A stretch of DNA of 64,000 nt from Acidimicrobiales bacterium (lineage in GTDB: Bacteria; Actinomycetota; Acidimicrobiia; Acidimicrobiales; Aldehydirespiratoraceae): assembly GCA_033344915.1 (NCBI GenBank), contig JAWPML010000001.1, positions 3,550,263 through 3,614,262 on the forward strand. Reading direction: 5' to 3'. The translations under genes were made by a program, and so were the position numbers. Of the stretch, positions 24,332 to 40,356 are shown one piece after another. The stretch's first letter is position 1. The number at the start of each line of letters is the position of its first letter. The notes under the pieces were generated by a model. That model was given only the letters and a program-made list of their open reading frames with translations, was not told where the DNA came from and made no database searches.

Positions 24332-25116
24332 CGTTCCAGTTGTCCGACTATGTGGACGCCCACCGAGGGCTGTTCGCCCACTACAACGACCTCGCCGGCC
24401 GGTTGTCCGACGACGAGATGGCCACCCAGTCGCTGTGCCCCGACTGGGACGTGCGCGGCGTGATCACCCACACTCTCGGGGTGGAGGTCGTGCTGACCGG
24501 CTGGGAGCCGTCTGCCGAGGCACCCCCGCCCTTCGAGAAGATGGGCGCGTTCGAGGCGGAGGCCGCCGCGCTCTCCCGCGCCGACTTCGCGATCCGAGTC
24601 CAGGAGGTCACCGCCACACGGCTGGCCGAGCTCGAACGCCTCGACGCCTCCGTCATCGATCAGCCGTCGATCACCCCCACGGGCATCGGCACCTACGGTG
24701 GCTTCCTCCAGGTCCGCGTGTTCGACCTGTGGGTCCACGCTCGCGACATCGCCGTCCCGCTCGGCGAGTCGCTCGACGACGCCGGCCCGGCCGCCGAGAT
24801 GGCGCTGTCCGAGGTCGATGGGGCGGTGGGTTACATCGTCGGCAAGAAGATCGGTCTGCCCGAGGGGAAGTCGGTCGTCTTCGAGATCCGCGGGGACATC
24901 GAGCGCGACATCGCCGTGACGGTCGACGGTCGGGCGACGCGCGTCGAGCGCGTGGACGAACCCGACGTGGTCGTCACCACCGATGTCGGGACGTTCATCA
25001 TGCTGGCGGCCGGGCGGATCGATCCTCACCAGCAGCTCGATGCCGGGACGATCTCGTGGTCCGGTGACGAGGAGTGGGGTCCGAAGGCCGCGCTCAACCT
25101 GGCGTATACGCGCTAG
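24328..25116 (+). CDS. Maleylpyruvate isomerase-like mycothiol-dependent (DinB/MDMPI_N) family protein
   Basis: MTFQLSDYVDAHRGLFAHYNDLAGRLSDDEMATQSLCPDWDVRGVITH. Start chosen at the ATGA overlap; the track ORF starts at 24301. Confidence 0.65.
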   Translation: MTFQLSDYVDAHRGLFAHYNDLAGRLSDDEMATQSLCPDWDVRGVITHTLGVEVVLTGWEPSAEAPPPFEKMGAFEAEAAALSRADFAIRVQEVTATRLAELERLDASVIDQPSITPTGIGTYGGFLQVRVFDLWVHARDIAVPLGESLDDAGPAAEMALSEVDGAVGYIVGKKIGLPEGKSVVFEIRGDIERDIAVTVDGRATRVERVDEPDVVVTTDVGTFIMLAAGRIDPHQQLDAGTISWSGDEEWGPKAALNLAYTR

Positions 25117-28100
25117 TCGCCAGCACTGCGGCGGCCTCGTCGCGCAGGGCATGCCACCCACTGTGGATCGCCAGGTCGTGCGTGTCGCGCAGCTGACCTT
25201 CGATGTCGTCCCATCGCTCGCGGCTCGGTGGATGGTGGGCGGCGACCCGAGCGGCCAGGACGATGCCGCGGCCGACGTAGATCGGGGCGGCGAGCCGCCT
25301 GGCGACCGCGATGACGGCATCGGCGTGATCGGCGGCATCCGCGGGCCGGTCGGCGGCGAGGGCGATGTGGCACAAGCTGACGTCGACCGGGTCGTAGGCG
25401 CCGTGACCACACCACGAGCCGTTGCCGCGGTAGGGGGCGAGCTGGTCGGCCACGTGCTCGGCGATGTCGACGAGTCCCACCTCGGCGGCGACATGGCCCG
25501 TCGACGTCATCGCCAGCAGCCACACCTGGTCCCGACTGATCGTCTCGTAGTCGATCGCGTGGAGTCGACGCACCATCTCGGCTGCTTGGTGATGGTCGCC
25601 GAGCTCGAACGCGCAACGAGCGGCGGCTGCCAGCCACACACCCATGTGCGGGTGGGCCTCCGACATCGCCTCGGCGAGCGGATGGAGTTCGCCGCCTCGA
25701 CCCTGCTCGAGTCGGATGGCCAGCAGGACTGAGGATGATGCGAGCAGATCCCAGGACTCGGAGAGGACGTTGGGGAAGCCGCTGGCGGCGTTCAGGAATC
25801 CCTCGGCGGCCGCGAGCTCGCCGTGGAGGTGGGCCCGCCCGGCCCGGAAATAGCTCAGGACGCGACGCCCGCGGCCGTTGTGGACCGTGGGTTCGAGCCG
25901 CTCCATCGCGGCGACGTGGGCATCGAGTTCCGCCCCGGTGCCGTGCTGCAGCATCGCGCCATACCCCGCGAGATGACCGCGGTACTCCGCCAGGGGATCG
26001 TCCAGGTCCTCGCCCAGCTCGATGCATCGTCGCGAGAGCTCGACGCGCCATTCCCCGTGGTGGGGGCCGTCGGTTCCCCGGTCGAGGAGGCGGAGCACCT
26101 CACAGACCAGGTGGGGGTCACCGGATTCCTCGGCGACGGTGAGGGCGTCGGCCCAGAGCTCGTGGGCCCGTTGCCATTGGGGCCCCATCGCGAACCACAC
26201 CGATGCGGTCGCCCTGACGCGGGCGCCACGATGCGGGTCGTCCAGGCCAGCGATCAGCTGCGTGACGAGTTCGGTGACGTCCGCGTCCGCGCCGCCGGGC
26301 CCGGTGAGGCGTCCGACGTCGCCGAGCTCGATGAGGGCGTCGGCGGTCAGGTCGGCGTGTCCCTCCTGATGGGCCGTGAACGCGGCGTCGCGCAGGAGCT
26401 CCACGTGGTGGGGGTCACCGGCCTCGCGCCGCGCCGATCCCTCCTCGATGGTCAACCGGATGCCGTGGCGCGAGCGGGGCGCGTCGACGATCTGGCGGGC
26501 CTTGGCGAGATGATCGGCGGCGAACTCGGGGGCCACTGCCTCCCGTGCCGCTTCGGCCGCCCGTTCGAGAGCCTCGACGGCAGCGCCCGGGTCCAGTCGT
26601 CGAGCCGCGAATCGATGCCGCGCCACTCGACCCAGATCGGGCTCGGGTCCGGCGGCGTAGGCCCCGGCGAGGCGATCGTGGATCTCGATCGCTCGGGCGT
26701 CCGACAACATCAGGCGGGTGGCCTCCCCCAGCAGGTCGTGGACGGTGCGCAGCAGTGGGCCGTGCTCGACGAGCACCCGTTCCTGCACGGCTTCCTCGAT
26801 CCCGCGCCCGGCCGCCGGACCCAGAACAGACTCGATGAGAGCGCGATCGACGGGATCGGCTGCGACCGCGACATGGTCCACGACCCGGCGGGCGGCGAGG
26901 GACAGGACGTCGAGGCGCTGGGCGACGGCGACCTCGACCGTCGGCGGCACGCCGGCGTCCCCGCTGAGCGCCCACACGCCGTCGGTGCGGCGCAACGCAC
27001 CGCGGTCGAGGAGGTGGCGCACGGTCGCGACCACGAAGAACGCGTTGCCGCCCGTCCGCCGGGCCAACTCGGCGCCGACGTCGTCCAGGTCGTCGCCCTC
27101 CGCGTCGACCAGGCGTCCGACGAGCGCGGTGACCGCCGCGGCGTCCAGCGGCGTGAGTCCGATCGGACGCAGGCTCTCGGGGAACGGGCGTTCGACGGGT
27201 CGTCCGGCGGCGACCACGGTGGTGTCACCTCGCGACGCCACCGTGGCGAGGATGCCGAGCGTCGTGTCGGGCGCGAGATGGATGTCGTCGATGACGAGGG
27301 TGAGTTGTGCCCGACGTCCCAGCGCCGACAGGAGGCTGCAGACCGCGGCGTCGGCCCGGGCGCGTCGCAGTTCACGACGCGGCGGCGGTTCCGAGTCGGG
27401 ATCGAACGCCATCAGGCCCGGCGCCAACCAGGCCAACGCGCCGGGATCCGCGCCGGGCACCGCCGCCCGGAGTGCGGCGGCGCCGGCCGGATGGGCCGCG
27501 ATCTCGTCCAGGAGGGCGACGATGGGCTCGTACGGGGATTCCGGGTTCTCGGTGCACGTCGTGCGGGCGACGAGACTGCCGAGCCGACCGCACACGGCGT
27601 CGAGCAGGGTCGTCTTGCCGAGTCCGCCGGGCCCGACGATGACCACGCTGCGGCGCCGGGAGATGTGCTCGAGCACCGTGGTCAGCTCCTCGTCCCGGCC
27701 GACCGCCGGTCCGGTACCGGCGGACAGACCGATGTCGCGGCGGATGTCGTCGAGGATGGCGTGGGTGTGCAACGACGGGTCGTTGTCGAGGATGCGCGAG
27801 CGCAGGGACGCGATCCCGGCCGGCAGTCCGATACCGGTCTCCTCCACCGAGCGCCGTTCGGTCAGGTCGAGCAGCGTCAGCGCGTCCGCCGCCGCACCGG
27901 AGCGTTGGAGGGCGACGGCGAGCAGGGCGGCTCGCACGGCCTGGGTCGGTGAGGCGATCAGCGCGGCTTCGAGATAGCCGACCGCCTCGGCGGTGCGTCC
28001 GCTCGCCAGCAGCGCGGCGCCCACCTGGTCCACACCGGCGTCGCGCAGCGACGCGAGCCGTGCCCGCGCGGCCACCACGTCCGGGTCGTCGGCGAGATCC

Positions 28101-28501
28101 GACAGCGCGTGGGGGTCCCAGGCTTCGAGTTCGCGTCGGAGCTCGTCGCCGTCCGTGCTCACGGCGGGTGTGGCGACCGCCGCGGCCACGACGGACACCC
28201 GGGTGGTCACGTCGATGTCGATGCCGTCGGCGAGCCGATACGAGGCACCGTCGGTCTCCACGAGCGACGGATCGGCGAGTTTCGTACGGATGGCGGCGAC
28301 CGCGTTCTGGAGGGCGGCCCGAGCGGTCTTCGGGGCCGCGTCGCCCCAGACCATTGCGATCAGGTCGTCGAACGGAACGGCGCGGGGAAAGCGGAGGGCG
28401 AGTCCGGCGACGACGGCGCGTTGGCGCGGCGACAGGTCGATCACACGGTCCTGCTCGACCAGTCGGGTGCGACCGAGCACGTCGATCCGGGGCGTCGCCA
28501 T
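25094..28501 (-). CDS. AfsR-like large SARP regulator: OmpR-type wHTH + BTAD + NB-ARC/STAND P-loop ATPase + TPR-like repeats
   Basis: N-terminus IDVLGRTRLVEQDRVIDLSPRQRAVVAGLAL...YRL (wHTH); BTAD-like helices; Walker A VVIVGPGGLGKTTLL; Walker B LTLVIDDIHLA; long helical C-terminus. 1135 aa. Confidence 0.8.
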   Translation of the reverse strand: MATPRIDVLGRTRLVEQDRVIDLSPRQRAVVAGLALRFPRAVPFDDLIAMVWGDAAPKTARAALQNAVAAIRTKLADPSLVETDGASYRLADGIDIDVTTRVSVVAAAVATPAVSTDGDELRRELEAWDPHALSDLADDPDVVAARARLASLRDAGVDQVGAALLASGRTAEAVGYLEAALIASPTQAVRAALLAVALQRSGAAADALTLLDLTERRSVEETGIGLPAGIASLRSRILDNDPSLHTHAILDDIRRDIGLSAGTGPAVGRDEELTTVLEHISRRRSVVIVGPGGLGKTTLLDAVCGRLGSLVARTTCTENPESPYEPIVALLDEIAAHPAGAAALRAAVPGADPGALAWLAPGLMAFDPDSEPPPRRELRRARADAAVCSLLSALGRRAQLTLVIDDIHLAPDTTLGILATVASRGDTTVVAAGRPVERPFPESLRPIGLTPLDAAAVTALVGRLVDAEGDDLDDVGAELARRTGGNAFFVVATVRHLLDRGALRRTDGVWALSGDAGVPPTVEVAVAQRLDVLSLAARRVVDHVAVAADPVDRALIESVLGPAAGRGIEEAVQERVLVEHGPLLRTVHDLLGEATRLMLSDARAIEIHDRLAGAYAAGPEPDLGRVARHRFAARRLDPGAAVEALERAAEAAREAVAPEFAADHLAKARQIVDAPRSRHGIRLTIEEGSARREAGDPHHVELLRDAAFTAHQEGHADLTADALIELGDVGRLTGPGGADADVTELVTQLIAGLDDPHRGARVRATASVWFAMGPQWQRAHELWADALTVAEESGDPHLVCEVLRLLDRGTDGPHHGEWRVELSRRCIELGEDLDDPLAEYRGHLAGYGAMLQHGTGAELDAHVAAMERLEPTVHNGRGRRVLSYFRAGRAHLHGELAAAEGFLNAASGFPNVLSESWDLLASSSVLLAIRLEQGRGGELHPLAEAMSEAHPHMGVWLAAAARCAFELGDHHQAAEMVRRLHAIDYETISRDQVWLLAMTSTGHVAAEVGLVDIAEHVADQLAPYRGNGSWCGHGAYDPVDVSLCHIALAADRPADAADHADAVIAVARRLAAPIYVGRGIVLAARVAAHHPPSRERWDDIEGQLRDTHDLAIHSGWHALRDEAAAVLATSAYTPG

Positions 28502-28547
28502 GGAGCATTAATGCCTGACCTCCCCCCGACCCGCAAGCGCGGTGGCT

Positions 28548-28565
28548 AACGGGCCGGTAACGGGA
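28548..28565. promoter_or_regulatory. Heptamer direct repeat TAACGGG-N4-TAACGGG (11-bp period; SARP-box-like)
   Basis: Perfect heptamer pair in the divergent gap between the AfsR-like gene and the FHA-protease operon. Confidence 0.4.
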
Positions 28566-28642
28566 GACTTTCGCACCAGGACAACGAGACGCGATGCTGT
28601 GTCGCCGTCGGCTCGATGGCCGTTCCCGATGTGGGCGCCGCG

Positions 28643-28660
28643 CTAATGGCTCGGTAACAG
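28643..28660. promoter_or_regulatory. Second heptamer pair TAATGGC-N4-TAACAGA (11-bp period)
   Basis: Same orientation and flanks (gcTAA.GG..cggTAAC.G) as the site 95 bp upstream. It lies 74 bp before the ATG at 28734. Confidence 0.35.
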
Positions 28661-28733
28661 AACCGAATCGGCCCTGTTCTTCCTCACCGGGACGGTGAAG
28701 AGTTGGGGCATCTCACATGGAGGGACCAACGGA

Positions 28734-30791
28734 ATGAGCGGGCAAAGACTCACAATTCGCTTCGAGGGGCAGGACCACGTGTTCGAGCCGGCCTCGTCGC
28801 CGGTGCGGATCGGGCGGGACGAGGACGCCGATGTCGTCGTCGAGCGGCAGGGCGTCTCACGACACCACGCCCAGCTCGACTACGACGGCGAGAGCTGGCA
28901 GCTGCGTGACGTCGACAGCACGCAGGGCACCTTCGTGGAAGGCGAACGGGTCACCACCCGGCCCGTCGGCGACTCGCTGTCCGTGACCCTCGCCCGGGGC
29001 GAACACGCGGTTCGGCTCGAGATCTCGACCAGCCCGATCGTCGACGAGCTCGACCGCACCGTGGCCGCGTCCCCGGACGCCACGGCTGTCGTCGGTGACG
29101 GCGGGGCGGTGCGACCGGGCGGCGTTCTGGCCGCCGGCGCGGCCGAGGGTGCCACCCAGGTGACGGGCGAGACCGTGGTCGTCGAGTGCGCCGGCCAGTC
29201 CTACACCTTCTCGCCGGGTCGCAAGTACGTCATCGGCCGCGACTCGAGTGTCGACGTCCAGAGCCAGAACCCCAACGTCTCGCGGCGTCATGCCGTGCTC
29301 GAGTACGAGAACGGGTGGAAGCTCGCCGACCTCGACAGTTCCGGGGGCACCTTCCTCGACGGACGCCGCACGAAGGAGACGCCCATCAGCGGCACCATGG
29401 CGTTCGTGCTCGGCGATGCCGACGCGGGTGAGCGCGTGGTCGTGAAGGCCAGCGGCGTGCGTCAGATCACCCTGGCCCAGCGGTTCAGCCGCCTCGGCGG
29501 CGGCGGCAAGGTCGGCCTGCTGGCCGGCGGTCTCGCCGCCCTGGCCATCATCATCGGTGCCGTGGCATTCCTCGCGACCCGAGGCGACGACGATCCCGAC
29601 TTCGACGCGCTCACCCGCGGGGTGGTGGCGATCAGCGTGCAGTCCGACTCCGGCGTCGGTGGCACTGGCTCGGGCACGATCATCGACAAGGAACGCGGCC
29701 TCGTCCTGACCAATGCGCACGTCGCGGGGTGGGGCGACGGCCAGGGTCTCGCCCTGTGGTACGGAATCAACGACACGTGGTTCGAGGACATCGAGGACAT
29801 CACGATCAGTGTGTCGAGTGGTCTCGACCGCAGTGCCGAGCCCCGGTTCAAGGCCGAGCTCGTCGCGGTCGACGGCTATCTCGACCTGGCGCTGCTGCAA
29901 CTGACCGAGACCCTGAGCGGCAAGATCGTGGAGGCGGTCGATCTCGCCGAGCTGACCGAGGTTCCCCTCGGTACCGTCGAGGGTCTGTCCACCGGCGACG
30001 ATGTCTTCGCCATGGGGTTCCCGGGCGTCGCTGCGAACAGCGCGGTGACCCTCACCGACGGTTCCATCAGTGCGTTCGTCGTCGATGAACGGCTCGAGGA
30101 CAACCGGGGTTGGATCCAGATGGATCTCGAGATCCGGGGTGGCAACTCCGGTGGTCTGCTCACGGACGGCAGCGGCAAGCTCATCGGTGTGCCCAGCCGT
30201 TCCACCATGGAGAGCGTGCTCGAGCTGCGGCCCCAGGAGAGCGGCATCTTCCTCTCCCGGGCGGCCGACTACGCCCAGCCGATGGTCGACGCGTTCGTCG
30301 CCGGGGAGACCTACGTCAGCCCGTACGTCACCCTGCTCGACGGCTCCGAGGACGTCACCGGCGTCTTCTTCGGCGAACTGGTGGAGGCCGAACCTGGCTT
30401 CACGTTCGAGTGCTCGGACAACTTCGCGAGCACGGCCCCCGTCGGAGCGCAGGCCCTGGCGGTGCAGGTCGACTACTTCAACTTCGTCGCCGGTGCCCAT
30501 CAGGACCTGGCGATCATCGTCAAGCGATTGCCGATCTCGGCCGCCGTGCAGCAGGCGTATCAGGATGCCGGCGTCGCCCTTCCCGACCGGCCCAACGAAG
30601 AGGGCTTCGCCGGGGCGGTGCAGACACCGTGGGAAACCATCGTGCCCAGGATCGACGACTGTTTCACGGCGGCTGTCCCGCTGCAGGAGCCACTCCTGCA
30701 ACTCGTCGACTATGTGATCGAGGTCCGTGCGGGAGGCAACTTCAAGCTCATGGAGAGCGTCACCTTCCAACCGGTCCTTCCCCCGGGCTGA
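28734..30791 (+). CDS. Dual-FHA, single-pass membrane, trypsin-like (S1) serine protease
   Basis: FHA1 (VRIGRDEDADVVVERQGVSRHHAQL...STQGTFV); FHA2 (YVIGRDSSVDVQSQNPNVSRRHAVL...SSGGTFLDG); TM (VGLLAGGLAALAIIIGAVAFLAT). Protease triad contexts are LTNAHV, LDLALLQL and GNSGGLL. RBS ggaggg lies before the ATG at 28734. Confidence 0.8.
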   Translation: MSGQRLTIRFEGQDHVFEPASSPVRIGRDEDADVVVERQGVSRHHAQLDYDGESWQLRDVDSTQGTFVEGERVTTRPVGDSLSVTLARGEHAVRLEISTSPIVDELDRTVAASPDATAVVGDGGAVRPGGVLAAGAAEGATQVTGETVVVECAGQSYTFSPGRKYVIGRDSSVDVQSQNPNVSRRHAVLEYENGWKLADLDSSGGTFLDGRRTKETPISGTMAFVLGDADAGERVVVKASGVRQITLAQRFSRLGGGGKVGLLAGGLAALAIIIGAVAFLATRGDDDPDFDALTRGVVAISVQSDSGVGGTGSGTIIDKERGLVLTNAHVAGWGDGQGLALWYGINDTWFEDIEDITISVSSGLDRSAEPRFKAELVAVDGYLDLALLQLTETLSGKIVEAVDLAELTEVPLGTVEGLSTGDDVFAMGFPGVAANSAVTLTDGSISAFVVDERLEDNRGWIQMDLEIRGGNSGGLLTDGSGKLIGVPSRSTMESVLELRPQESGIFLSRAADYAQPMVDAFVAGETYVSPYVTLLDGSEDVTGVFFGELVEAEPGFTFECSDNFASTAPVGAQALAVQVDYFNFVAGAHQDLAIIVKRLPISAAVQQAYQDAGVALPDRPNEEGFAGAVQTPWETIVPRIDDCFTAAVPLQEPLLQLVDYVIEVRAGGNFKLMESVTFQPVLPPG

Positions 30792-30797
30792 ATCGTC

Positions 30798-32084
30798 ATG
30801 GCGGGTGACGAGCACGCCACAGACGCGGCACCGCCGCCGCCCCCTCCCGGGGGCGCGGCGGGGGGCTCCGCGCCGGGCGCGGCGCCGAACTGGAAGAAGA
30901 AGCTGGAGGGCGTCAACAAGGTCGCCGGCGTGAAGTGGAAGGCGGCCAAGGAGAAGGCGCTCGACACCGAGTCGGGGAAGAAGGCGAAGGCCTGGTCGGC
31001 GGCCGGCGCCGAGAAGATGGATGCCCGGATCGAGAAGCTCAGCGGGACCAGTGGTGGCAAGAAGATCGCCGATGGGGCGCGCAAGGTGGGCTCGGTTGCC
31101 GCGAAGTTGCCGCTGATCACCGCGATGGGCGACTCCGTGAAGATGTCCAACGGCGTGGATCTCCTCACCGCCGCGGTCAAGGAGGACCCCAAGCGTCCGG
31201 AACCGAAGATCCATCTCGTGCTCGCCCTCCAGCGGGTCGAGCGCGACATGGCCCAGGTGCGGACCGCCAAGGCGATCTACAAGCCGCAGACCCTCGTCAC
31301 CCGCACGCTGTTGCAGAAGTCGGCGGCGATGGGCGTGGAGGACGACATGGCGATGACGGAGAAGCTCCTCCGCGCCGCCTTTAAGCAGGCCCTGGCGATC
31401 AAGGAGCAGGCGCCGGCCGATGCGGTGAACCTCCACAGCCTCGCCCGGGTCTACCTGCTCCAGTCCGTGCCGGAGACGGCTCGTCAGCTGGCTCGGCTGT
31501 CGCTCTCCGCCGGCCATCCGCATCCGGGCGACGTCTACGTCACGCTGGCCAACGTCGAGAGCCTCGTCGAGAACACCGAGTCCGTGGCCGAGTACGCCGA
31601 GCTGGCCGTGAAGCACGGCTCCACCCTCGGTTACAGCGTGCTGGCCGAGCTCGCCATGACCGGGCCGGGTACGGCGTCCGAGCAGGCGAAGCAGTACGCC
31701 GAATGGGCCTCGCGCGTCGATCCGGCCGACGAGGAGCGCTATTACGGCGTGCGTCTCGATCCGGATCGACTCGACACGCTCCGGCGCCTGGCCAAGGCCC
31801 AGAAGGGCAAAGCGGTGGACCTGAAAGAGTCCTTCAGCGATCGTGCAGCGACTCTGAAGGAGCAGTCGGCAGATTCGTCCCATGACGAACCGGCCAGTGA
31901 TGACTCCCCACCATCCCACCCGCCGGCGGATTGGTACACGGACCCGTACGGGCGCCATGACCACCGCTACTGGGACGGGACGGCGTGGACCGATCACGTG
32001 GCCACGGCGGGACAACAATCCGTTGACCCGATCGACGGTTCGTCCGACCCCAATCAGCTACGAAGCGAAGGACGAGTGACATGA
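30798..32084 (+). CDS. Hypothetical soluble helical protein with a C-terminal DUF2510-like W-rich motif
   Basis: P/G/K-rich N-terminus, helical middle, and C-terminal WYTDPYGRHDHRYWDGTAWTDHV. It starts 7 nt after the protease stop and has an ATGA overlap with the next gene. Confidence 0.6.
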   Translation: MAGDEHATDAAPPPPPPGGAAGGSAPGAAPNWKKKLEGVNKVAGVKWKAAKEKALDTESGKKAKAWSAAGAEKMDARIEKLSGTSGGKKIADGARKVGSVAAKLPLITAMGDSVKMSNGVDLLTAAVKEDPKRPEPKIHLVLALQRVERDMAQVRTAKAIYKPQTLVTRTLLQKSAAMGVEDDMAMTEKLLRAAFKQALAIKEQAPADAVNLHSLARVYLLQSVPETARQLARLSLSAGHPHPGDVYVTLANVESLVENTESVAEYAELAVKHGSTLGYSVLAELAMTGPGTASEQAKQYAEWASRVDPADEERYYGVRLDPDRLDTLRRLAKAQKGKAVDLKESFSDRAATLKEQSADSSHDEPASDDSPPSHPPADWYTDPYGRHDHRYWDGTAWTDHVATAGQQSVDPIDGSSDPNQLRSEGRVT

Positions 32085-32677
32085 GCATGTTCGATCTGGA
32101 CGGAGACGGTTTCCTCGACGGTCTCGACATCGACGACATCGACGGTGAGGCCCTCGAGGGCGGCATCGACATCGACGGCGACGGCATTGCCGACGCGGTC
32201 GACACCACGGGCGACGGCGTCATCGATTCCGTCGATTTCGACGGTGACGGCATGACGGATGCGGTGGACTCCACCGGCGACGGCGCGATCGATTCGATCG
32301 ACTCCACGGGTGACGGCGACTTCGACGTCCTCGACAGCAATCACGACGGCACGATGGACTCGGCCGACTCGACCGGCGACGGCTACGTGAACGCCGTCGA
32401 CTCCGACGGCGACGGCATCATCGACGACGGCACCATCAACGCCGACGGCAGCTTCACCTCCGCCGACCTGGACGGTGACGGCTGGGCCCAGGAGACCGAT
32501 CTCGACGGCGACGGCACCATCGACTCGATGGACACCGACTTCAACGTCGACGGCTTCGGCGAGGTGACGCCGGCGGAGGATCCCTACGCCGTGACCACCG
32601 AGGTCGACTCACTCGACATGAGTGACCCCTTCGACAGCACCGACTCGGGCCTCGACAGCGGCACCGACACCTACTGA
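32081..32677 (+). CDS. Highly acidic DxDGDG/DxTGDG repeat protein (Ca-binding-loop-like repeats)
   Basis: About 12 degenerate 11-residue units (DIDGDGIADAV, DTTGDGVIDSV, DFDGDGMTDAV, DSTGDGAIDSI...). No signal peptide or TM. Confidence 0.7.
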   Translation: MSMFDLDGDGFLDGLDIDDIDGEALEGGIDIDGDGIADAVDTTGDGVIDSVDFDGDGMTDAVDSTGDGAIDSIDSTGDGDFDVLDSNHDGTMDSADSTGDGYVNAVDSDGDGIIDDGTINADGSFTSADLDGDGWAQETDLDGDGTIDSMDTDFNVDGFGEVTPAEDPYAVTTEVDSLDMSDPFDSTDSGLDSGTDTY

Positions 32678-32705
32678 CAGGCACGAGAGGAACGAGGAGA
32701 GAACG

Positions 32706-33287
32706 ATGAGTGATTTCGGTTTGGACGACATGGACATGGGCGACATCGACGTGGATCTCGATGTCGACCTGGACGGCGACGGCATCATGGACAGCGCCGA
32801 CATCGACGGTGACGGCGTGCTCGACGTGAGCGACGTCGACGGCGATGGCGCGGTCGATCTGGTCGACCTCGACGGTGACGGCGTCGGTGACGTCGGTGAC
32901 CTCGACGGCGACGGCCAGGTGGACATCGCCGACCTCGACGGTGACGGCGTCATGGACGTGGCCGACATGGACGGTGACGGTGTGATCGACGCGGTCGACA
33001 CCGACGGCGACGGCATCATGGATGCCGCCGACCAGGACGGCGACGGCTACATCGATGCGGTCGACGTCGACGGAGACGGCGTGATGGACACCTTCGACCT
33101 CGACGGTGACGGTGAGGTCGACGGGTTCGACACGGATGGCGACGGTGTCGCCGATGTGGCCGACCTCGACGGTGACGGCGTCCTCGAACAGGTGGATATC
33201 GGTGAGGACGGTGAGGTCCTCGAGGCCGACCCGACGCTCATCGAGCGCGTGGTGGACGCCCTCCACCTCGAGAACCCCTTCAACTGA
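32706..33287 (+). CDS. Highly acidic protein made of 14 consecutive DxDGDGxxDxx units
   Basis: MSDFGLDDMDMGDIDVDLDV, then DLDGDGIMDSA DIDGDGVLDVS ... DLDGDGVLEQV DIGEDGEVLEA. RBS gaggaga lies before the ATG at 32706. The track ORF start at 32622 is rejected. Confidence 0.7.
   Translation: MSDFGLDDMDMGDIDVDLDVDLDGDGIMDSADIDGDGVLDVSDVDGDGAVDLVDLDGDGVGDVGDLDGDGQVDIADLDGDGVMDVADMDGDGVIDAVDTDGDGIMDAADQDGDGYIDAVDVDGDGVMDTFDLDGDGEVDGFDTDGDGVADVADLDGDGVLEQVDIGEDGEVLEADPTLIERVVDALHLENPFN
32766..33227 (+). repeat. 33-bp in-frame tandem repeat array (14 units) encoding the DxDGDG units
   Basis: The exact 33-bp periodicity is visible in DNA and protein. It generates spurious repeat-ORFs on the minus strand. 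Confidence 0.9.
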
Positions 33288-33289
33288 TC

Positions 33290-34993
33290 ATGCAACCCGA
33301 GGAACGACGAGTAGCGGTCGACGCAGCGCTCACCCAGGTGGTGAACGACTTCGGCCGACGCATCAGTGACGACCCGGTTCGACTGCGCAACCTGCTGGTC
33401 GACGCGACGGGCGCCAACGCCATGTCGCTACGTGACGAGATCGACGCGGTGGTCACCGCGGCGGAGACCGAGTTGCCCGCAACCGTGCTCCAGGGCGACG
33501 ACACCGCCCGTCTCGCCGCGGCGGACCGGCTGACCGAGCGGTTGGGTGAGGAGCACAGCGATCTCGCCCCCTGGGTCACCGAGACGTGGGCGACCGCGCT
33601 CGCCGGCACCTCGCAACGACCGGGCGCCACGCTGGCCGCCGGGAGTGCAGCTCCCGACGGCGATGCGACCGCCGTGGCCGACGACGCAACGGCCGTCGCC
33701 GGCGACGCGACCGTGGCCGCGCCCGACGGCGCGACGGTGCTGCCCGACGGGGCGACCGTGCTGCCCGACGGCGCGACCGTTCTCGCACCGGGTGACGCTG
33801 ACGAGGCACCCGCCGAGGTGGACCGCCGCCCGCTCCTGATCGGCGTGGCCGCACTCATCGTCGTCGTGCTCGTCGCGTTCTTCGCGACGCGCGGCGACGA
33901 CGATCCCCGTCTCGACACGCTGGACCCAGGAACGACGACCCTGCCAACCGGGGGCGACGACGCCGGCGACGACGCGACCGACGGTGCGGACGATGACGGC
34001 AGCGACGACACCGGCTCGATCCCGACCGGCCTCACCGGCTCGACCGACATCGAGGTCGCCGACGGCGTGGCGGGCACCCGCACCCTCCAGGTGGGAGACA
34101 ACGCCACGACCACCGTGCTCGAGTTCACCAACGACACGACGGAACGGTTCCGCGGGCACTGGATCGAAGTGGTCCCGGCCGATCTCGAGGCCGCTGGCTT
34201 CGACGCCGGCCCCGACGCGGCGCTGATCGACGACACGGCCTTCGGCGTCGCCCTCGATCTCCAGCCGGGCGAGACCGCCTCGTACTCCTACACCACGGGC
34301 TGGACCACCGATGACGTCGACGAGTTCGACGAGGCGTTCGACGAGTTCGAGCGGGCGTCGGAGACCTGGTTCGAGGAGAACCCCGATCCGCGGTCGCCGG
34401 CGCTGCGACCGGACTTCGATTCGGGCGAGACCACCCGCAACTCGTCGTTCGCGGTCACGGGCAGCACCGAGCCGTGGAACACGGTCACGGTCAACGGCAC
34501 CACGATCGACGTGGATGTCGACGGCGAGTTCGCGACCGAGATCACCCTCCGACCGGGGGAGAACCTGATCGAGCTCCGGGCCGTCAGTCCGATCGGCGCC
34601 ACCGCGATCCGGAACCGGACGATCACCTACGACAACACGACGACCACGACCACCACGACCACGACGACCACGACGTCGACCGTGGCGCCCAACCAGGCTC
34701 CGGTCAACAGCTGCGGCAACGACTACTTCTCGCTGCCCTACGACACGTCGTACTGGTTCAGTCACCCGTTCAGCTGCTACTCCGATCCCGACGGTGACAC
34801 GGTGAACGTCTACGCCGACACCGGTGTCGCCTCGCCCGGGAACTGTGGAACGGACAACGCCTGCTGGAACTACTACCCGCCGGCCGACTGGGACGGGACT
34901 CCCTACGAGGTGACGATCGCCATCTGGGGCCAGGACCCGGACGGGCTCACGACCGCCGCTTCCTACGTCACCCTGTGCCTGAATTGCGCCTGA
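33290..34993 (+). CDS. Hypothetical bitopic membrane protein (cytoplasmic helical N-domain, TM, D/T-rich linker, Cys-containing extracytoplasmic domain)
   Basis: TM (LLIGVAALIVVVLVAFFAT); 3 x PDGATVL (21-bp repeats at 33722..33784); a 14-residue Thr run; C-terminal Cys-rich region (CGNDY...CYSDPDGD...CGTDNAC...CLNC). Confidence 0.6.
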   Translation: MQPEERRVAVDAALTQVVNDFGRRISDDPVRLRNLLVDATGANAMSLRDEIDAVVTAAETELPATVLQGDDTARLAAADRLTERLGEEHSDLAPWVTETWATALAGTSQRPGATLAAGSAAPDGDATAVADDATAVAGDATVAAPDGATVLPDGATVLPDGATVLAPGDADEAPAEVDRRPLLIGVAALIVVVLVAFFATRGDDDPRLDTLDPGTTTLPTGGDDAGDDATDGADDDGSDDTGSIPTGLTGSTDIEVADGVAGTRTLQVGDNATTTVLEFTNDTTERFRGHWIEVVPADLEAAGFDAGPDAALIDDTAFGVALDLQPGETASYSYTTGWTTDDVDEFDEAFDEFERASETWFEENPDPRSPALRPDFDSGETTRNSSFAVTGSTEPWNTVTVNGTTIDVDVDGEFATEITLRPGENLIELRAVSPIGATAIRNRTITYDNTTTTTTTTTTTTTSTVAPNQAPVNSCGNDYFSLPYDTSYWFSHPFSCYSDPDGDTVNVYADTGVASPGNCGTDNACWNYYPPADWDGTPYEVTIAIWGQDPDGLTTAASYVTLCLNCA

Positions 34994-35016
34994 CGGGCCT
35001 CGATGCCGTGAGGAGA

Positions 35017-36327
35017 TCAGCCGTGCCGGATGACCGCAGTCGACCCACCGAGGTCGATCGTGGCATCCGGCACGAGCCCGATCGCCTGCCCGGGGGTCAC
35101 GGTGTGCTCGTCCCCGGTGGGCAGGGTGACCGTCCACTCGTGTTCGGAGAGATTGCGCAGACCCCACGCGTCGGGCCGGCTGGGATTGGTCGCCACCTCG
35201 GCCACGTCGGTGGTGAAGTCGTAGTTGTGGCGGAGGGGGTGCACCGAGATCCGGGTGTCGTCGTTGAGGACGACACGGTGACGGTCGATCTCCAGCCGCA
35301 GCGGCGCGCCGAGCTCCCGCTTGCAGTTCCAGCAGATCTGGTCGGGCCGATCGGGGTCGTAAAAGGACTCGGAGCGACACCAGGGGCACCGTTGCACGTT
35401 GGCCATGAGGTCGGCCATCGCCGACCGCCACACGCTCTCGCGGACCCGCTTCGACGCGTCCGGTTCGAGCCCGTCGGTGAACGCCTGGACGAAGAGCCGC
35501 TGGATCGACCCCGGGAACAGGGGCCAGTACTGGAGGACCGCGCCATGGTGTTCGCCGCTCGGCGCGTTCGAGCGGTCCTCGGGATGGAAGATGAACAAAG
35601 GATTCACGCCGAACATCTGGCGCTCCGCGTTCTCGTCCCAACACCGGAAGTCGAGCTCGCGCCGGCCGAGCAGTGGATGACCGACCATCAGCACGTAGAA
35701 GAGCAGCACGGCCAGCGAGTAGAGATCGGTGGTGGTGCTCGGCAGCGCCTCACCCCGCACGATCTCCGGCGCCATGAACCGCCGCGTGCCCAGCACGTTG
35801 GACGAACTGTCGCGCTCGACGCCGACATTGTCGTTGTCACAGATGAGTGGCGTCCCGGACTCGGGGTCGAAGAACAGGTTGCCGAAACTGATGTCGCGAT
35901 AGCAGAGGCCCTGGTTGTGCAGGGCGAGGAAGCTGCCCGTCAACTTCATGCACATCATGCAGATCGTGCGGAAGGACGCCGTGATCTTGCCGGTGAGGAG
36001 ATCGGTGAGACTCGCGAACCCGTCCGGCCGCAGCGGCATGACGTAGCCGAACGCGGCGCTGCCGTCCGTCTCGGCCATCTCGAGGGGCCAGAGGAAATGT
36101 TCGTCGGGCGCACCGCGATCCACGAGGAGCTCGATGGCGGATCGCTGGTTGCGCGTCGCCGTGTGGTCGAAGTACCACTTCAGTGCGAGCGCGGGACTGC
36201 CGTCGTCGGGGTGGACCTCGAAGACCGCGCCCTGGCCGCCCTCACCGATGAATCGGCCGACGGTTGCCGTCCGTCCGGTCGGTGTGAGCCTCACCTGCGA
36301 CTGCTCTGCAACCATCGGGAGCATCAT
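35017..36327 (-). CDS. Atypical Ser/Thr protein kinase with a C-terminal zinc ribbon and beta-rich tail
   Basis: Gly-loop IGEGGQGAVFEV; Lys in ALALKW; catalytic loop YRDISFGN; CDNDN in place of DFG; FMAPE; then CPWC...CWNC. 436 aa. Confidence 0.8.
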   Translation of the reverse strand: MMLPMVAEQSQVRLTPTGRTATVGRFIGEGGQGAVFEVHPDDGSPALALKWYFDHTATRNQRSAIELLVDRGAPDEHFLWPLEMAETDGSAAFGYVMPLRPDGFASLTDLLTGKITASFRTICMMCMKLTGSFLALHNQGLCYRDISFGNLFFDPESGTPLICDNDNVGVERDSSSNVLGTRRFMAPEIVRGEALPSTTTDLYSLAVLLFYVLMVGHPLLGRRELDFRCWDENAERQMFGVNPLFIFHPEDRSNAPSGEHHGAVLQYWPLFPGSIQRLFVQAFTDGLEPDASKRVRESVWRSAMADLMANVQRCPWCRSESFYDPDRPDQICWNCKRELGAPLRLEIDRHRVVLNDDTRISVHPLRHNYDFTTDVAEVATNPSRPDAWGLRNLSEHEWTVTLPTGDEHTVTPGQAIGLVPDATIDLGGSTAVIRHG

Positions 36328-36385
36328 GTTCGATATCGGAGGGGCCGGTCAACGCGCCCGCCCGCTCGGAAACGGAGAACCGCCC

Positions 36386-37063
36386 ATGGCTGATCGACCC
36401 GGTGCGCAGCTCGCCACCCGTCCGCTGCACTTCTTCATCCTCGCCGACTGCTCCGGTTCGATGGCGGCCGACGGCAAGATGCACGCGCTCAACAACGCAC
36501 TGCGCGAGACCGTGCCCCACCTCGTCGACATCGCCGAGGGCAACCCGCACGCCGATCTCCTGATCCGCGTGGTCCGCTTCGCGACGGGCGCGACATGGCA
36601 CGTCGAGGAGCCCACCCCGGCGGCCGAGTTCGCCTGGCCCGACATGGAGGCGGAGGGCTACACCGACCTCGGCGCCGCCCTCGACCTCGTGGCGAGTCAG
36701 CTGGAGGTGCCGCCCATGGAGGCGCGAGCACTCCCGCCGGCGATCGTGCTCATCTCCGACGGCATGCCGACGGACGACTGGGAGGACGCGCTCGAGCGGC
36801 TCCTGCTGCTGCCCTGGGGCGAGCGGTCGGTGCGGACCGCCGTCGCGATCGGTCGCGATGCGGCGCGCGACGTGCTGATGGAGTTCGTCTCCGACAAGGA
36901 GGTCGGTCCGGTGTCCGCCAACAATCCCGAGCAGCTCGTCCGGCTCATCCGCTGGGCCTCGACCCAGGTCGGCAAGGCCGCGTCACTCACCGCCAACGAG
37001 ACGACGGCCCAACGCAGCGGTCCCGTGCCCTTCGCGGAGGACGACGAGGCGGTCATCTGGTGA
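36386..37063 (+). CDS. von Willebrand factor A (vWA) domain protein, TerY-like
   Basis: MIDAS motif LADCSGSM, then ...TDLGAAL...VLISDGMPTD; 225 aa. Divergent from the kinase (58-bp gap). Confidence 0.8.
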   Translation: MADRPGAQLATRPLHFFILADCSGSMAADGKMHALNNALRETVPHLVDIAEGNPHADLLIRVVRFATGATWHVEEPTPAAEFAWPDMEAEGYTDLGAALDLVASQLEVPPMEARALPPAIVLISDGMPTDDWEDALERLLLLPWGERSVRTAVAIGRDAARDVLMEFVSDKEVGPVSANNPEQLVRLIRWASTQVGKAASLTANETTAQRSGPVPFAEDDEAVIW

Positions 37064-38076
37064 CGGAGACACGTGAGGTCCTCCGATGGTCGACCGCGTC
37101 CGCATCGGTGCGTGGGTCGTCGCATCGGCGCAGCGACACCGTCAACCAGGACGCGGTGCTGGTCCGCGAGGTCGGCGACGCGGTCGTCGTCGCGGTGGCT
37201 GACGGTCACGGCAGCCGCACCCACATGCGATCCGACGCCGGGTCTCGCCTCGCCGTCGAAGCCGCGTGTTCGCTCGGGGCCGAGCTCGTCGAGGACGGCC
37301 TGCTGCACCGGGCGGAGAGTGACATCGTCACCACGCTCGAATACGAGGCCGGCCCGGCCCTCGTCGAACGGTGGCGCTCGGCGGTACTCGACCATGTCGC
37401 GGACAACCCGTGGACATCCGAGGATCTCGCGGTCTCACCCGGCGCAGCCGGTGATCCGTTCCATGGCTACGGCACGACGATCATGGTCGCGCTGGCCGGT
37501 CCCGATCGGGTCGCCGTGCTCCAGCTGGGCGACGGCGATGTCCTCGTCGGCCACCGATCCGGCCGGGCCACGCTGCCGGTGCCGGGCGACGATCGACTCA
37601 TCGGCAATCAGACCACCTCGTTGTGTCTCGACTCCGCGCCGGATGACTTTCGGGCCGCGGCCATCGCCCTCGACGGCGACCCGGTCCGGTTCGTGTCCAT
37701 CACCACCGACGGCTACGCGAACTCCTTCGCCTCGGAGAACTGGGGGGAGGAGGTCGGCGCCGACATGCTCGAGCATCTCGATCGCGACGGTCTTCCGTAC
37801 GTCGCGGGGAGCCTCGAGGACTGGCTCGGCGAGTCGGCCGAGATCGGTGGGGACGACGTCACGATGGGTCTGCTCGTCGCCGACCTGGAGACGATCGAGG
37901 TCGAGGTGCCCGAGGAGGTCGATGGGCCGGTGCGCGATCTCGACGATCTGGCCGATGTCACGACCGAGGTGAAGGGCCGGCGCCGTGGCCGGCGCCGGAT
38001 CGTGCTGATCGTGCTGCTGATCCTCCTCGTTCTCGGTGGTGGGGTCGGGGCGGCGATCGCCCTGTTCGTCCTGTGA
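37060..38076 (+). CDS. PP2C-family Ser/Thr phosphatase with a C-terminal TM anchor
   Basis: GSSHRRSDTVNQDAV, VAVADGHGS, ITTDGY and GGDDVTM; C-terminal RRRGRRRIVLIVLLILLVLGGGVGAAIALFVL. GTGA overlap with the vWA stop. Confidence 0.8.
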   Translation: MTETREVLRWSTASASVRGSSHRRSDTVNQDAVLVREVGDAVVVAVADGHGSRTHMRSDAGSRLAVEAACSLGAELVEDGLLHRAESDIVTTLEYEAGPALVERWRSAVLDHVADNPWTSEDLAVSPGAAGDPFHGYGTTIMVALAGPDRVAVLQLGDGDVLVGHRSGRATLPVPGDDRLIGNQTTSLCLDSAPDDFRAAAIALDGDPVRFVSITTDGYANSFASENWGEEVGADMLEHLDRDGLPYVAGSLEDWLGESAEIGGDDVTMGLLVADLETIEVEVPEEVDGPVRDLDDLADVTTEVKGRRRGRRRIVLIVLLILLVLGGGVGAAIALFVL

Positions 38077-38153
38077 CACACGCGGAAACGGGCCGCCGCA
38101 CCGGAGTGCAGCGGCCCGTGTTCCCGGGGTTCGAGCGGCCGGTGGCCGCGGAC

Positions 38154-39182
38154 TCAGCGGATGCCCAGCGGGACGTAGTGGTCGCAGGCCGCCGGCGAGG
38201 CACCGTCGTAGCCCTCGGCGAACGCCTGCATGCGCTGCTCCGACGTGCCGTGGTGGTCAGGGCTGTCGAAGTAGCTGTCGCCCACGAGCCAGGCGGCGGT
38301 GAGGCCCTCCTCGACGTCACCCGGGTCCAGGATGCCGGCGGCGTCGGCGCCGGCGGTCCACACGCCGGCCAGGCAGTCGGCGTGCTTTTCGAGGGTGGGG
38401 ACGTCGTACAGGTTTCCGACGCCGAACTCGTTCTGGATCTGGTGGCCGTACTCGTGGGCCATGATCATGGCGACGGCGAAGTCACCGATGACACCGCCCG
38501 CGTACTGGCCGTCGGGGCCGACCATCTCGCCCGAGTAGATCTCCCACGCGGCCTGCTGCGAGACGACGATGCGGTCCGAGGCGGGGCAGTAGAACAGGGC
38601 GCTGTCGTCGATGATCGACGGGTTGCCCTGGGCATCGGTGCACCACGAGTAGGACCACTCGCCGGGGGCGGGGAAGTAGTAGTAGACCCACGGCTCGGCG
38701 AGACCGTTCGCGGCGAACACGTCGGTCCAGTAGACGTCGATCTCGTAGAGGACGTAGGTCATGAACTCCTCCATCGAGTACCACTCGTAGTCCGTGTACA
38801 CGGTCGTGGTGCCGTCGTCCCACTGCTGGCGGGGCGAGAGCATCGGGGTGCTGTCGACTGCCTGCGGGTCGGCGCTGCGTTCGACGGGGCGCACCGAGCG
38901 GGCCTCGTCGCCGTCGGTCGAGACCGTGCGGTCCGGACCGTTCGAGGGGCTGGACGCGACCGAGTCGCCGGAGCGCTGCTCCGCCACGACCCGGGTCCCG
39001 GCGTGGGGCTCGGTCGAGTTGACGGTGCAGGCGCCGGCGAGCACGGCGATCGCCGTCACGACGACGGCGACGAAGCGGCCCCGCACGGTGCGGCGGCGAG
39101 GAGCCGGTGTGATCGGCATCTCGGCCAGCTGGACCGTGTTGGTGCTGTTGGTGCTGTCGGTGTTGGTGGGTTCGGTGGTCAT
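38154..39182 (-). CDS. Putative neutral zinc metallopeptidase (YpfJ-like) lipoprotein
   Basis: Lipobox-like VLAGAC; HEYGHQIQ zinc motif. An alternative start at MPITPAPRRR lies 21 codons downstream. Confidence 0.65.
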   Translation of the reverse strand: MTTEPTNTDSTNSTNTVQLAEMPITPAPRRRTVRGRFVAVVVTAIAVLAGACTVNSTEPHAGTRVVAEQRSGDSVASSPSNGPDRTVSTDGDEARSVRPVERSADPQAVDSTPMLSPRQQWDDGTTTVYTDYEWYSMEEFMTYVLYEIDVYWTDVFAANGLAEPWVYYYFPAPGEWSYSWCTDAQGNPSIIDDSALFYCPASDRIVVSQQAAWEIYSGEMVGPDGQYAGGVIGDFAVAMIMAHEYGHQIQNEFGVGNLYDVPTLEKHADCLAGVWTAGADAAGILDPGDVEEGLTAAWLVGDSYFDSPDHHGTSEQRMQAFAEGYDGASPAACDHYVPLGIR

Positions 39183-39255
39183 GTCGATCTCCTGGGTGGT
39201 AGGTGTGAAGAGATCGAACGACGGGGCGCTTTGCGGCCACTGAAGGTTCGTTGAA

Positions 39256-40356
39256 ATGGCTGAAAACGGGGTGCTGCAGGTTCGGGTGCTCGGCTCGGTG
39301 ACGGTCGAGATCGACGGGTTCGCGGTGTCGGTCGGCGGTGCCCGGCCGGCGCTTCTGCTCGCCCGGCTCGCCGTGTCCGCACCGGCGCCGGTTCGGGTCG
39401 AGCAGCTGATCGACGCGATCTGGGGCGACGACGCCTCGGAGAAGGCCGCGAACACCCTTCAGGTCCACGTCTCGAACCTGCGGCGGACGCTGAAACCGGC
39501 CGGGGACCCGGCCCAACTGCTGCGGACCGTGCGCAACGGCTACGAGCTCGCGCTCACCGCCGATCAGCTCGACATCCTGGCGTTCGAGGAGCACACGGCG
39601 ACGGCCCGCCGGGCGGCCGGGGCCGGTGACCACGAGGGCGCGGCGGCCGCGTTCACCGCCGCGCTGGCGATCCCGCGCGGCGAGCCGCTGGCGGACCTTC
39701 TCGATCACGAGTGGGCCGCCAACGAGGCCACGGTGATCGGGGAACGGCTCGCCGGCGTGTGGCGGGAGTGGGCCCAGGCCGAGCTCGACGCCGGCCGCCA
39801 TCTCGCGGCGCTGCCCTCACTCGAGCAGCGCCTCCGCGACGTTCCCCTCGACGAGGGTGTGGCCGGCCTGCTCGTGCTGGCGCTCTACCGGGCGGGACGC
39901 CAGACCGATGCGCTGCGGGTGGTGTCGGACATGCGCCGCCGGCTCGGCGAGGAGATCGGTGTCGACCCGGGACCGGAACTCGCCGACCTCGAGTCGCGGA
40001 TCCTCGCCCACGACGAACGTCTGCTCGGCGCGGTGGGGGCGATCGACCTCCCGGCATCCACCCGCGTGGTGGACGATCGGGACCGCGGCTTCCTGGTCAT
40101 CGGCGGTCGGCGCCATGTGCTCGCCCGGGGGCTGATGACGATCGGGCGACGCGACGATCAGGACATCGTGATCGACGACGCGGACGTGAGCCGCGAACAC
40201 GCCGTGGTCGAACGCATCGCGACCGGCTTTCGGATCGTCGATCGCGGCTCCACGAACGGCATCTGGGTGAACGGCGTGCAGGTCGACGACGCCGACCTCA
40301 CCGACGGCGACGAACTCCTCCTCGGATCCACAGTCGCCACCTTCCGCTCCACCTGA
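39256..40356 (+). CDS. EmbR-like regulator: OmpR-type wHTH + BTAD + C-terminal FHA
   Basis: LQVRVLGSVTVEIDG...LLLARLAV...NTLQVHVSNLRR (wHTH), a BTAD helical region, and FHA (MTIGRRDDQDIVIDDADVSREHAVV...GSTNGIWVNG). Confidence 0.8.
   Translation: MAENGVLQVRVLGSVTVEIDGFAVSVGGARPALLLARLAVSAPAPVRVEQLIDAIWGDDASEKAANTLQVHVSNLRRTLKPAGDPAQLLRTVRNGYELALTADQLDILAFEEHTATARRAAGAGDHEGAAAAFTAALAIPRGEPLADLLDHEWAANEATVIGERLAGVWREWAQAELDAGRHLAALPSLEQRLRDVPLDEGVAGLLVLALYRAGRQTDALRVVSDMRRRLGEEIGVDPGPELADLESRILAHDERLLGAVGAIDLPASTRVVDDRDRGFLVIGGRRHVLARGLMTIGRRDDQDIVIDDADVSREHAVVERIATGFRIVDRGSTNGIWVNGVQVDDADLTDGDELLLGSTVATFRST

Follow-up and report, generated by a model that had tools for sequence, protein, structure and literature searches.

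Regulators of the SARP family (Streptomyces antibiotic regulatory proteins) have been studied almost only as activators of antibiotic clusters in Streptomyces. They bind direct repeats phased at 11 bp (PMC10936776), and at the afsS promoter the repeat DRdown runs from -29, with the -10 hexamer CACTGT placed after a 20-bp spacer from the -35 element at -38 to -33 (PMC10936776, PMC11301090). For EmbR of Mycobacterium tuberculosis, no binding motif or consensus is given in PMC9239209. Here we analysed two pairs of direct repeats with the same 11-bp period, site 1 and site 2, in a stretch of 64,000 nucleotides of an uncultured Acidimicrobiales bacterium (assembly GCA_033344915.1, contig JAWPML010000001.1, positions 3,550,263 to 3,614,262), hereafter the window. 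As the original prediction had it, the repeats lie in a 232-bp gap between the ATG of a gene for a large AfsR-like SARP (28501, minus strand) and the ATG of an operon that begins with an FHA-protease gene (28734). The repeats are conserved in related loci, and site 2 is retained in front of the protease gene in loci with and without the AfsR-like gene.

The sequence gcTAACGGGccggTAACGGGag occupies 28545-28566, with the heptamers of site 1 at 28547-28553 and 28558-28564, and gcTAATGGCtcggTAACAGAac occupies 28642-28663, with those of site 2 at 28644-28650 and 28655-28661. Both were indeed present where they had been announced, at 28546-28567 and 28641-28662, although these coordinates were shifted by 1-3 bp. 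Each had been described as a heptamer repeated exactly one helical turn (11 bp) apart; at this spacing the first pair is an exact repeat, whereas the units of the second agree with each other at 4 of 7 positions. Site 2 is identical to site 1 at 14 of 17 positions (GCTAACGGGCCGGTAAC versus GCTAATGGCTCGGTAAC). The two lie on the same strand, as was proposed, and the distance between them from start to start is 97 bp (about nine helical turns) in place of the 95 bp given at first. Site 1 is located 46-63 nt upstream of the AfsR-like ATG, inverted relative to that gene and its putative promoter, and 170-187 nt upstream of the operon ATG, and site 2 is located 73-90 nt upstream of the FHA-protease ATG. 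Both sites show direct repeats at 11 bp on a single helical face, as expected for SARP sites, whose repeats are 11 or 22 bp apart, and candidate cognate SARP genes are at hand, the AfsR-like gene being adjacent and an EmbR-like gene lying 8.5 kb away in the window.

The conservation of the sites was followed in a footprinting set made up of the contigs of eleven FHA-protease homologues; P0012 was left out of the DNA comparison. In L082/L083, whose protease is 85% and whose AfsR-like protein is 91% identical to those of the window, sites 1 and 2 are both 100% conserved, each within a longer footprint (Table 1), whereas 27 of the 54 positions between the footprints (28586-28639) are mismatched against L082 (about 50% identity). 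The CTGT of the site 2 footprint is also kept in L081 and L085. Exact heptamer pairs spaced at 11 bp occur nine times in the window, so that site 1 alone is unremarkable, and a shuffled 232-bp region yields such a pair with P ~0.015. The motif itself is rarer: TAAC-N7-TAAC is found once in the window (0.00 expected) and, with up to one mismatch, again at sites 1 and 2 only, which are also the only matches there of TAAYRG-N5-TAAYRG with up to one mismatch (0.07 expected). For background, TAAC-N7-TARC appears 6 times in 829 kb of unrelated loci. In some 150 kb covering the window and related loci, the relaxed form TA[AG][CT]-N7-TA[AG][CT] was present at the orthologous positions of L081, L082, L083, L085, L086, L087 and L088 and at one other place, in L090. 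As it is confined in this way, we regard the sites as constrained cis-elements and not as products of chance. The observation is thus confirmed and, judged from the sequence, it is functionally meaningful; the sites are very probably functional protein-binding elements.

We then considered which gene each site serves. The 5' unit of the site 2 equivalents with 11-bp spacing stands at -85 to -95 from the ATG, and since this distance to the protease gene is kept whatever lies upstream, site 2 is part of the operon promoter and older than the AfsR-like gene. The loci that lack the AfsR-like gene have a site 2 at least as close to the TAAC consensus, which again makes the site older than that gene. 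For site 1 the situation is different, as the corresponding position of L081 and L085 holds one GCT[A/G]ACGG unit (GCTGACGGGCC, GCTAACGGCCC), about 100-112 bp upstream of site 2, and the second unit has decayed; site 1 is therefore kept only together with the AfsR-like gene. Since site 2 is retained in L081, L085 and L086-L088, all without that gene, the AfsR-like protein is unlikely to be its original or sole binder. The reading of the repeats as SARP sites in the original prediction is thus supported as far as the 7-bp units with 4-bp spacers, their common face, their place in a promoter region, the two SARPs of the island and the constraint are concerned, and is doubtful as far as it would make the AfsR-like protein the original or sole binder of site 2.

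We propose that both repeats would be operators for a head-to-tail, same-face tandem dimer of a winged-helix protein of the OmpR/SARP class. Site 2 would be the ancestral control element of the FHA-protease operon, found about 75-95 nt from the ATG in relatives down to about 63% identity, and site 1 a stronger second copy, 97 bp upstream, at the edge of the AfsR-like insertion or deletion (indel). Site 1 would most likely couple to the same factor either the AfsR-like promoter or, as an upstream auxiliary contact, the operon promoter. The likeliest binder would be a SARP of the island, with the EmbR-type protein, which joins SARP and FHA domains, preferred over the adjacent AfsR-like protein, such that the Ser/Thr kinase/phosphatase signalling of the island (Pkinase, PP2C, FHA) would set transcription of the operon. 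The existence, conservation and synteny of the repeats and the lack of further copies in the window are observed; we infer the binding, the identity of the binder, the position of the promoter and an action by activation rather than repression. This combined model, with an ancestral site 2 and an EmbR-type binder preferred, is in our judgement evenly balanced between holding and failing. For its parts, a tandem winged-helix protein is probably the binder, a SARP of the island may well be, at somewhat short of even chances, and the EmbR-like protein specifically is put forward tentatively.

Table 1. Features of the window and repeats upstream of the FHA-protease gene in related loci. Positions given with a minus sign are relative to the protease ATG; identities are those of the protease to that of the window.
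Feature or locus	Position	Strand	Sequence	Description
Site 1	28547-28564	+	TAACGGG-ccgg-TAACGGG	Exact heptamer direct repeat, 11-bp spacing
Site 2	28644-28661	+	TAATGGC-tcgg-TAACAGA	Degenerate copy of site 1, same orientation
Footprint, site 1	28544-28582			0 mismatches against L082; reaches ~18 bp 3' of the repeat (GAGACTTTCGCACCAGGA)
Footprint, site 2	28640-28685			0 mismatches against L082; reaches 24 bp 3' of the repeat, takes in CTGT[T/C]C
AfsR-like large SARP gene	25094-28501	-		1135 aa; winged helix, BTAD and AAA_16/STAND NTPase
Putative AfsR-like promoter	28508-28536	-	TTGCGG (28536-28531), 17 nt, ATTAAT (28513-28508), 6 nt, ATG	Predicted
FHA-protease gene, first of the operon	28734-30791	+		685 aa; two FHA (Pfam 3.8e-32) and trypsin-like protease (Trypsin_2 2.4e-19)
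Shine-Dalgarno of the FHA-protease gene	28719-28724	+	GGAGGG	GGAGG-like sequence kept in all orthologous loci
Candidate weak -10	28672-28677	+	CCCTGT	TACTGT in L081, CGCTGT in L085; predicted
Alternative candidate -10	28698-28703	+	AAGAGT	AACAGT in L081; site 2 would then be at about -49 to -66 from the transcription start, class-I-like; predicted
EmbR-type SARP gene	39256-40356	+		366 aa; winged helix, BTAD and FHA (Pfam Trans_reg_C, BTAD, FHA); favoured candidate binder
L081	5' unit -95		TAACAGC-cgac-TAACGGA	Protease 87%; without AfsR-like gene, mycothiol-isomerase-like (MDMPI) gene abuts the intergenic region
L085	5' unit -93		TAACAGA-ccgc-TAACGGA	Protease 86%; upstream as L081, without AfsR-like gene
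L086, L087	-85/-74		TAACAGC-tcgg-TAGCAGC	Protease 66%, 63%; EmbR-like gene upstream
L088	-92/-81		TAACAGG-gcgg-TAGCAGC	Protease 63%; EmbR-like gene upstream
L084, L092	-47/-35		TAACGCG-tgcac-TA[AG]CGTC	Protease 65%, 61%; EmbR-like gene upstream
L089, L090				Protease ~50%; EmbR-like gene upstream; no site 2 equivalent

Residues 9-363 of the EmbR-like protein align to M. tuberculosis EmbR (PDB 2FEZ, E=1.3e-39), and in L084, L086, L089, L090 and L092 the orthologous gene immediately precedes that of the FHA-protease. In L087 and L088 the 3' end of the upstream gene has the same FHA-type sequence as in L086, so that it is evidently EmbR-like too. The SARP regions of the EmbR-like and AfsR-like proteins of the window are 33% identical, with LQVHVSNLRR as the recognition helix of the former and LQNAVAAIRTKL as that of the latter. 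Across all loci that carry TAAC repeats upstream of the protease gene, the EmbR-like recognition helix NTLQVHVSNLRR is identical, and in L089 and L090, which have no TAAC repeats there, it differs at three positions (NTFHVHLSNLRR). This correlation between helix and site favours the EmbR-like protein as the binder, if thinly. The base-contacting residues T88 and R92 of AfsR correspond to N and A in the AfsR-like protein and to V and N in the EmbR-like one, a comparison that, as far as alignment goes, shows only that specificity differs from that of AfsR and does not single out the reader of TAAC.

If carried further, these observations would make TAAC-N7-TAAC an EmbR-type operator within a two-tier SARP circuit outside Streptomyces, in which kinase and PP2C would act on the EmbR-like protein and this on an FHA-protease operon associated with a type VII secretion system (T7SS), site 1 extending this control to the AfsR-like STAND regulator, a recent acquisition. 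We consider this extended circuit speculative and doubt that it holds as a whole.

The adjacent AfsR-like gene was characterized in the same way. Its product scores 41.9 bits for BTAD (cutoff 22.1) and 25.8 bits for Trans_reg_C, just under the cutoff of 26.2, and matches AAA_16 at 3.9e-15; residues 5-244 align to the SARP domain structures of S. coelicolor AfsR (E=1.7e-16), and the C-terminal ~700 aa gave no match to the TPR sensor domain that follows the NOD/STAND ATPase in large SARPs of the AfsR type. It is not an AfsR orthologue, as it reaches 69 bits with the NCBIfam AfsR equivalog, whose cutoff is 1430; in fact, neither SARP of the island is an AfsR orthologue by the NCBIfam cutoffs. A database of 5.8 billion proteins contained two homologues, the L082 orthologue and one protein of 30% identity, and on this count the gene is best taken as a rare, lineage-specific addition. 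The locus of the distant homologue (L091) has a single GGCTAACGCC unit upstream and is uninformative. As a candidate defence system, the STAND protein gave no PADLOC match.

Together with its promoter, the AfsR-like gene makes up an indel of about 3.4 kb between the MDMPI gene and the operon (window 25094-28544, compared with L081 1864-1975 and L085 849-960), which the window and L082 have and L081 and L085 lack. The boundary of this indel coincides exactly with the left edge of site 1, and GCTGACGGGCC in L081 provides the TGA stop of the MDMPI gene. Both hexamers of the putative AfsR-like promoter are within blocks conserved in L082, and the upstream GGAGG lies outside them; no Shine-Dalgarno sequence is conserved. 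From this arrangement, the gene appears to have a self-sufficient promoter and a leaderless mRNA. The hexamer ATTAAT is palindromic and reads alike on both strands. A consensus promoter/terminator scan of 28300-28900 returned no match; the TTGCGG/ATTAAT pair was not listed since the hexamer lacks an A at position 2.

On the operon side, the original prediction had found no convincing -10 hexamer, and we agree: between site 2 and the ATG there is no TANNNT, just the weak CCCTGT, which starts 17 nt past the first base of the 3' TAAC unit and 10 bp past the end of the heptamer. An NNCTGT at that distance from the 3' repeat is found in the four closest loci only. The FHA-protease has orthologues of 50-87% identity. 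A reading of the region as an RNA element was discarded (no Rfam match at E<=1, fold z-score of -0.66). The 8-mer GTGAAGAG is present at 28695-28702, some 35 nt ahead of the FHA-protease start codon, and again at 39205-39212 in the intergenic region between the Zn-peptidase and EmbR-like genes; it is kept upstream of the protease gene in L082 and L085, with GTCAACAG in L081, and may be a shared promoter/operator element or due to chance.

Several observations weigh against the combined model. To our knowledge, the TAAC heptamer is unlike any described SARP heptamer (TCGAGXX, CGGCAAG). The repeats of L084 and L092 have a 12-bp spacing and lie closer to the gene (-47). From 28662 to 28733 there is no TA dinucleotide and hence no TANNNT -10 for the canonical 8-bp spacing of SARP promoters, and at the NNCTGT position L086, L087 and L088 read CTCTCG, CGCTCG and CCCCTC, respectively. 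Scanning the window and the related loci with a position-weight matrix derived from seven sites added none to these, and consequently no regulon can be defined. The correlation of helix and site has one phylogenetic split behind it; it is further weakened because L090 keeps a TAAC-N7-TAGC, CCGGTAAC-ttcc-CCGTAGC at 11430-11444, upstream of another FHA gene, despite its differing helix. Finally, the EmbR-like gene is itself preceded by a repeat phased at 11 bp but different in sequence, TGAAG-N6-TGAAG, and this could instead be the site that its product binds.

The 7+4 direct-repeat layout is, by analogy, common to the whole OmpR/PhoB winged-helix class, such that a SARP and a response regulator would not be told apart by layout. 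A rather unlikely alternative is that the sites belong to an OmpR/PhoB-family response regulator encoded elsewhere in the genome, GlnR-like or PhoP-like, and not to a SARP. The GlnR element gTnAc-n6-GaAAc (PMC10235972) can be set beside cTAAC-n6-GTAAC at site 1 and GTAAC-n6-GTAGC in L086, and the 7-bp TCACAGC repeats of M. tuberculosis PhoP, with a 4-bp spacer (PMC4832192), beside the TAACAGC-tcgg-TAGCAGC of L086/L087. The motif also persists without the AfsR-like gene, and it occurs in L090, where the EmbR-like recognition helix differs. However, typical GlnR targets have two boxes, that is, four phased sites, whereas here there are two units per location; no nitrogen or phosphate function is evident for the operon; no other copy of the motif exists in the 64 kb, including the surroundings of a glutamine-synthetase-like gene (50974-52611); and every locus examined shows tight synteny between the site and a SARP gene. 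It is less likely still that the adjacent AfsR-like SARP binds both sites, combining autoregulation with activation of the divergent operon, the reading to which the original prediction most lends itself. The divergent layout with the perfect repeat nearest to the AfsR-like gene would fit such a binder, and so would a site 1 intact only where that gene exists and a SARP domain related to AfsR. Yet the site 2 equivalents are equal or better in loci without the gene (L081, L085, L086-L088), and the gene is a rare lineage-specific addition whose winged-helix match stays below the Pfam cutoff (25.8 against 26.2 bits) and whose recognition helix LQNAVAAIRTKL is atypical, in a SARP region just 33% identical to the EmbR-like one. 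Moreover, site 1 is inverted with respect to the gene's putative promoter, which already has a reasonable -35, TTGCGG.

Promoters for extracytoplasmic function (ECF) sigma factors combine a GGAAC-like -35 and a GTT or CGT -10 over a spacer of 16-18 nt, with GGAA[C/T]-N17-18-GTT in the actinobacterial SigH/SigE/SigR type, and it may be asked whether a promoter of this kind, GGTAAC-N17-GTT, takes its -35 from the 3' TAAC unit of site 2, with the repeat being secondary. The window does have GGTAAC (28653-28658) followed after 17 nt by GTT (28676-28678), L081 and L085 have CTAAC-N17-GTC and CTAAC-N17-GTT, and the CTGT[T/C]C block is conserved; the pattern fits the four closest loci. We find this explanation improbable, as it accounts neither for the other unit 11 bp upstream, conserved throughout the three groups of loci that bear the motif, nor for site 1, where GGA follows N17; besides, CGC or TCC takes the place of GTT in L086-L088, and no sigma or anti-sigma gene is found among the window open reading frames scanned. 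That the resemblance is fortuitous, or a scar without regulatory function, left by recombination when the AfsR-like gene was gained or lost, we hold to be very improbable indeed. The nine exact 11-bp-spaced heptamer pairs that the window holds by chance alone and the position of site 1 exactly at the indel boundary would agree with such an origin, but the sites are perfectly conserved islands in diverged intergenic DNA, the motif occupies the same position in loci of 63-87% protein identity with different upstream genes, and sites 1 and 2 are its sole matches in 64 kb. We keep a conserved operator pair, which a SARP of the island and preferably the EmbR-like one would read, as the working model.

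The related loci offered some further observations. The island (28734-40356) encodes the FHA-protease, a DUF2510 protein, a Glucodextran_B-like protein, a Ser/Thr kinase, a VWA protein, PP2C, a Zn-peptidase and the EmbR-like regulator. Among relatives at a greater distance, this module adjoins type VII secretion genes, with an FHA-FtsK/SpoIIIE ATPase and WXG100 (L089 7114-12070; L090 10794-11977; the P0012 locus), which suggests that the island is a T7SS-associated signalling module. A scan of a genome collection with the FHA-protease alignment, in effect with generic protease/FHA patterns, brought up only homologues of at most 35% identity in unrelated contexts, which did not serve for footprinting, and two metagenome scans gave no matches.

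Just upstream of the EmbR-like gene, cTGAAG-N6-TGAA[G/A] is conserved in four loci: the window (39241-39256), L084 (3751-3767), L086 (3753-3768) and L092 (1167-1183). In L084, L086 and L092 its 3' unit reads as a -35, with TTGAAG, 17-19 nt, TACAGT or TACGCT, 7 nt and ATG or GTG, a layout that implies an mRNA without a leader. The 3' unit of the window overlaps the annotated EmbR-like ATG, and translation may in truth start at the GTG at 39271. The L090 site at 11430-11444 is close to the L086-L088 version, and the FHA gene next to it, whose called start (11604) probably falls some 36 codons too late, is divergent to a WXG100-like gene. Upstream of the L090 protease gene, the place of the TAAC site is taken at 4812-4840 by three 11-bp-phased heptamers, TTGACGC-cggc-TTGCCGC-gatc-TTGACTA (-117 to -89). 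A lone TAACGTC stands 31-37 nt upstream of the protease ATG in L086 (4970), L087 (261), L088 (736) and L092 (about 2379), with TAGCGTC in L084 (4966); these loci are of 61-66% identity, the unit lies about 54 bp (five helical turns) downstream of the main pair in L086/L087, and nothing corresponds to it in the window. This unit may act as a proximal site, possibly for repression.

If the sites are real, they provide Acidimicrobiia with a concrete candidate operator that can be mutated, shared by several uncultured lineages and fronting an FHA-protease gene embedded in a kinase/phosphatase/FHA island. They would then make testable how a phospho-signal passes to transcription through proteins with SARP and FHA domains, which sequence these read, and how a newly gained regulator is wired in. 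Should the operator be of the EmbR type, it would be a candidate DNA motif for the EmbR-type (SARP plus FHA) subfamily, and with a response regulator of the GlnR or PhoP type as the binder, the finding would be routine.

Compared with the described systems, the layout of 7+4+7 is identical to that of the M. tuberculosis PhoP repeat, TCACAGC-N4-TCACAGC, from which the L086/L087 site differs at one position per unit, whereas the window units TAACGGG, TAATGGC and TAACAGA match it less well. The GlnR box shares with the sites its 5-bp cores, 6-bp spacing and 11-bp period, and cTAAC/GTAAC fits it at 4 of 5 positions in each half; unlike it, there is one a-b pair per location in place of the usual two boxes, and the context is not nitrogen metabolism. 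EmbR of M. tuberculosis (2FEZ), which is controlled by the Ser/Thr kinase PknH, resembles the EmbR-like regulator in its winged helix, BTAD and FHA domains and in its setting amid Pkinase, PP2C and FHA genes, and differs in its target genes. With the afs box of AfsR at S. coelicolor afsS, the locus has in common two direct repeats of 11-bp period on one face, a poor -35 region and a SARP gene next to the target, as well as a weak candidate -10-like hexamer that begins 17 nt past the first base of the 3' repeat (CCCTGT here, CACTGT in afsS), which would be the class-II layout of SARPs. It departs from the afs box in its host, known from an Acidimicrobiales metagenome-assembled genome, in serving an FHA-protease signalling operon and not an antibiotic cluster, in the second site 97 bp upstream, and in that its sites are predicted ones. 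The sites thus add to a known kind of element, in a phylum and a gene context that are unusual for it.

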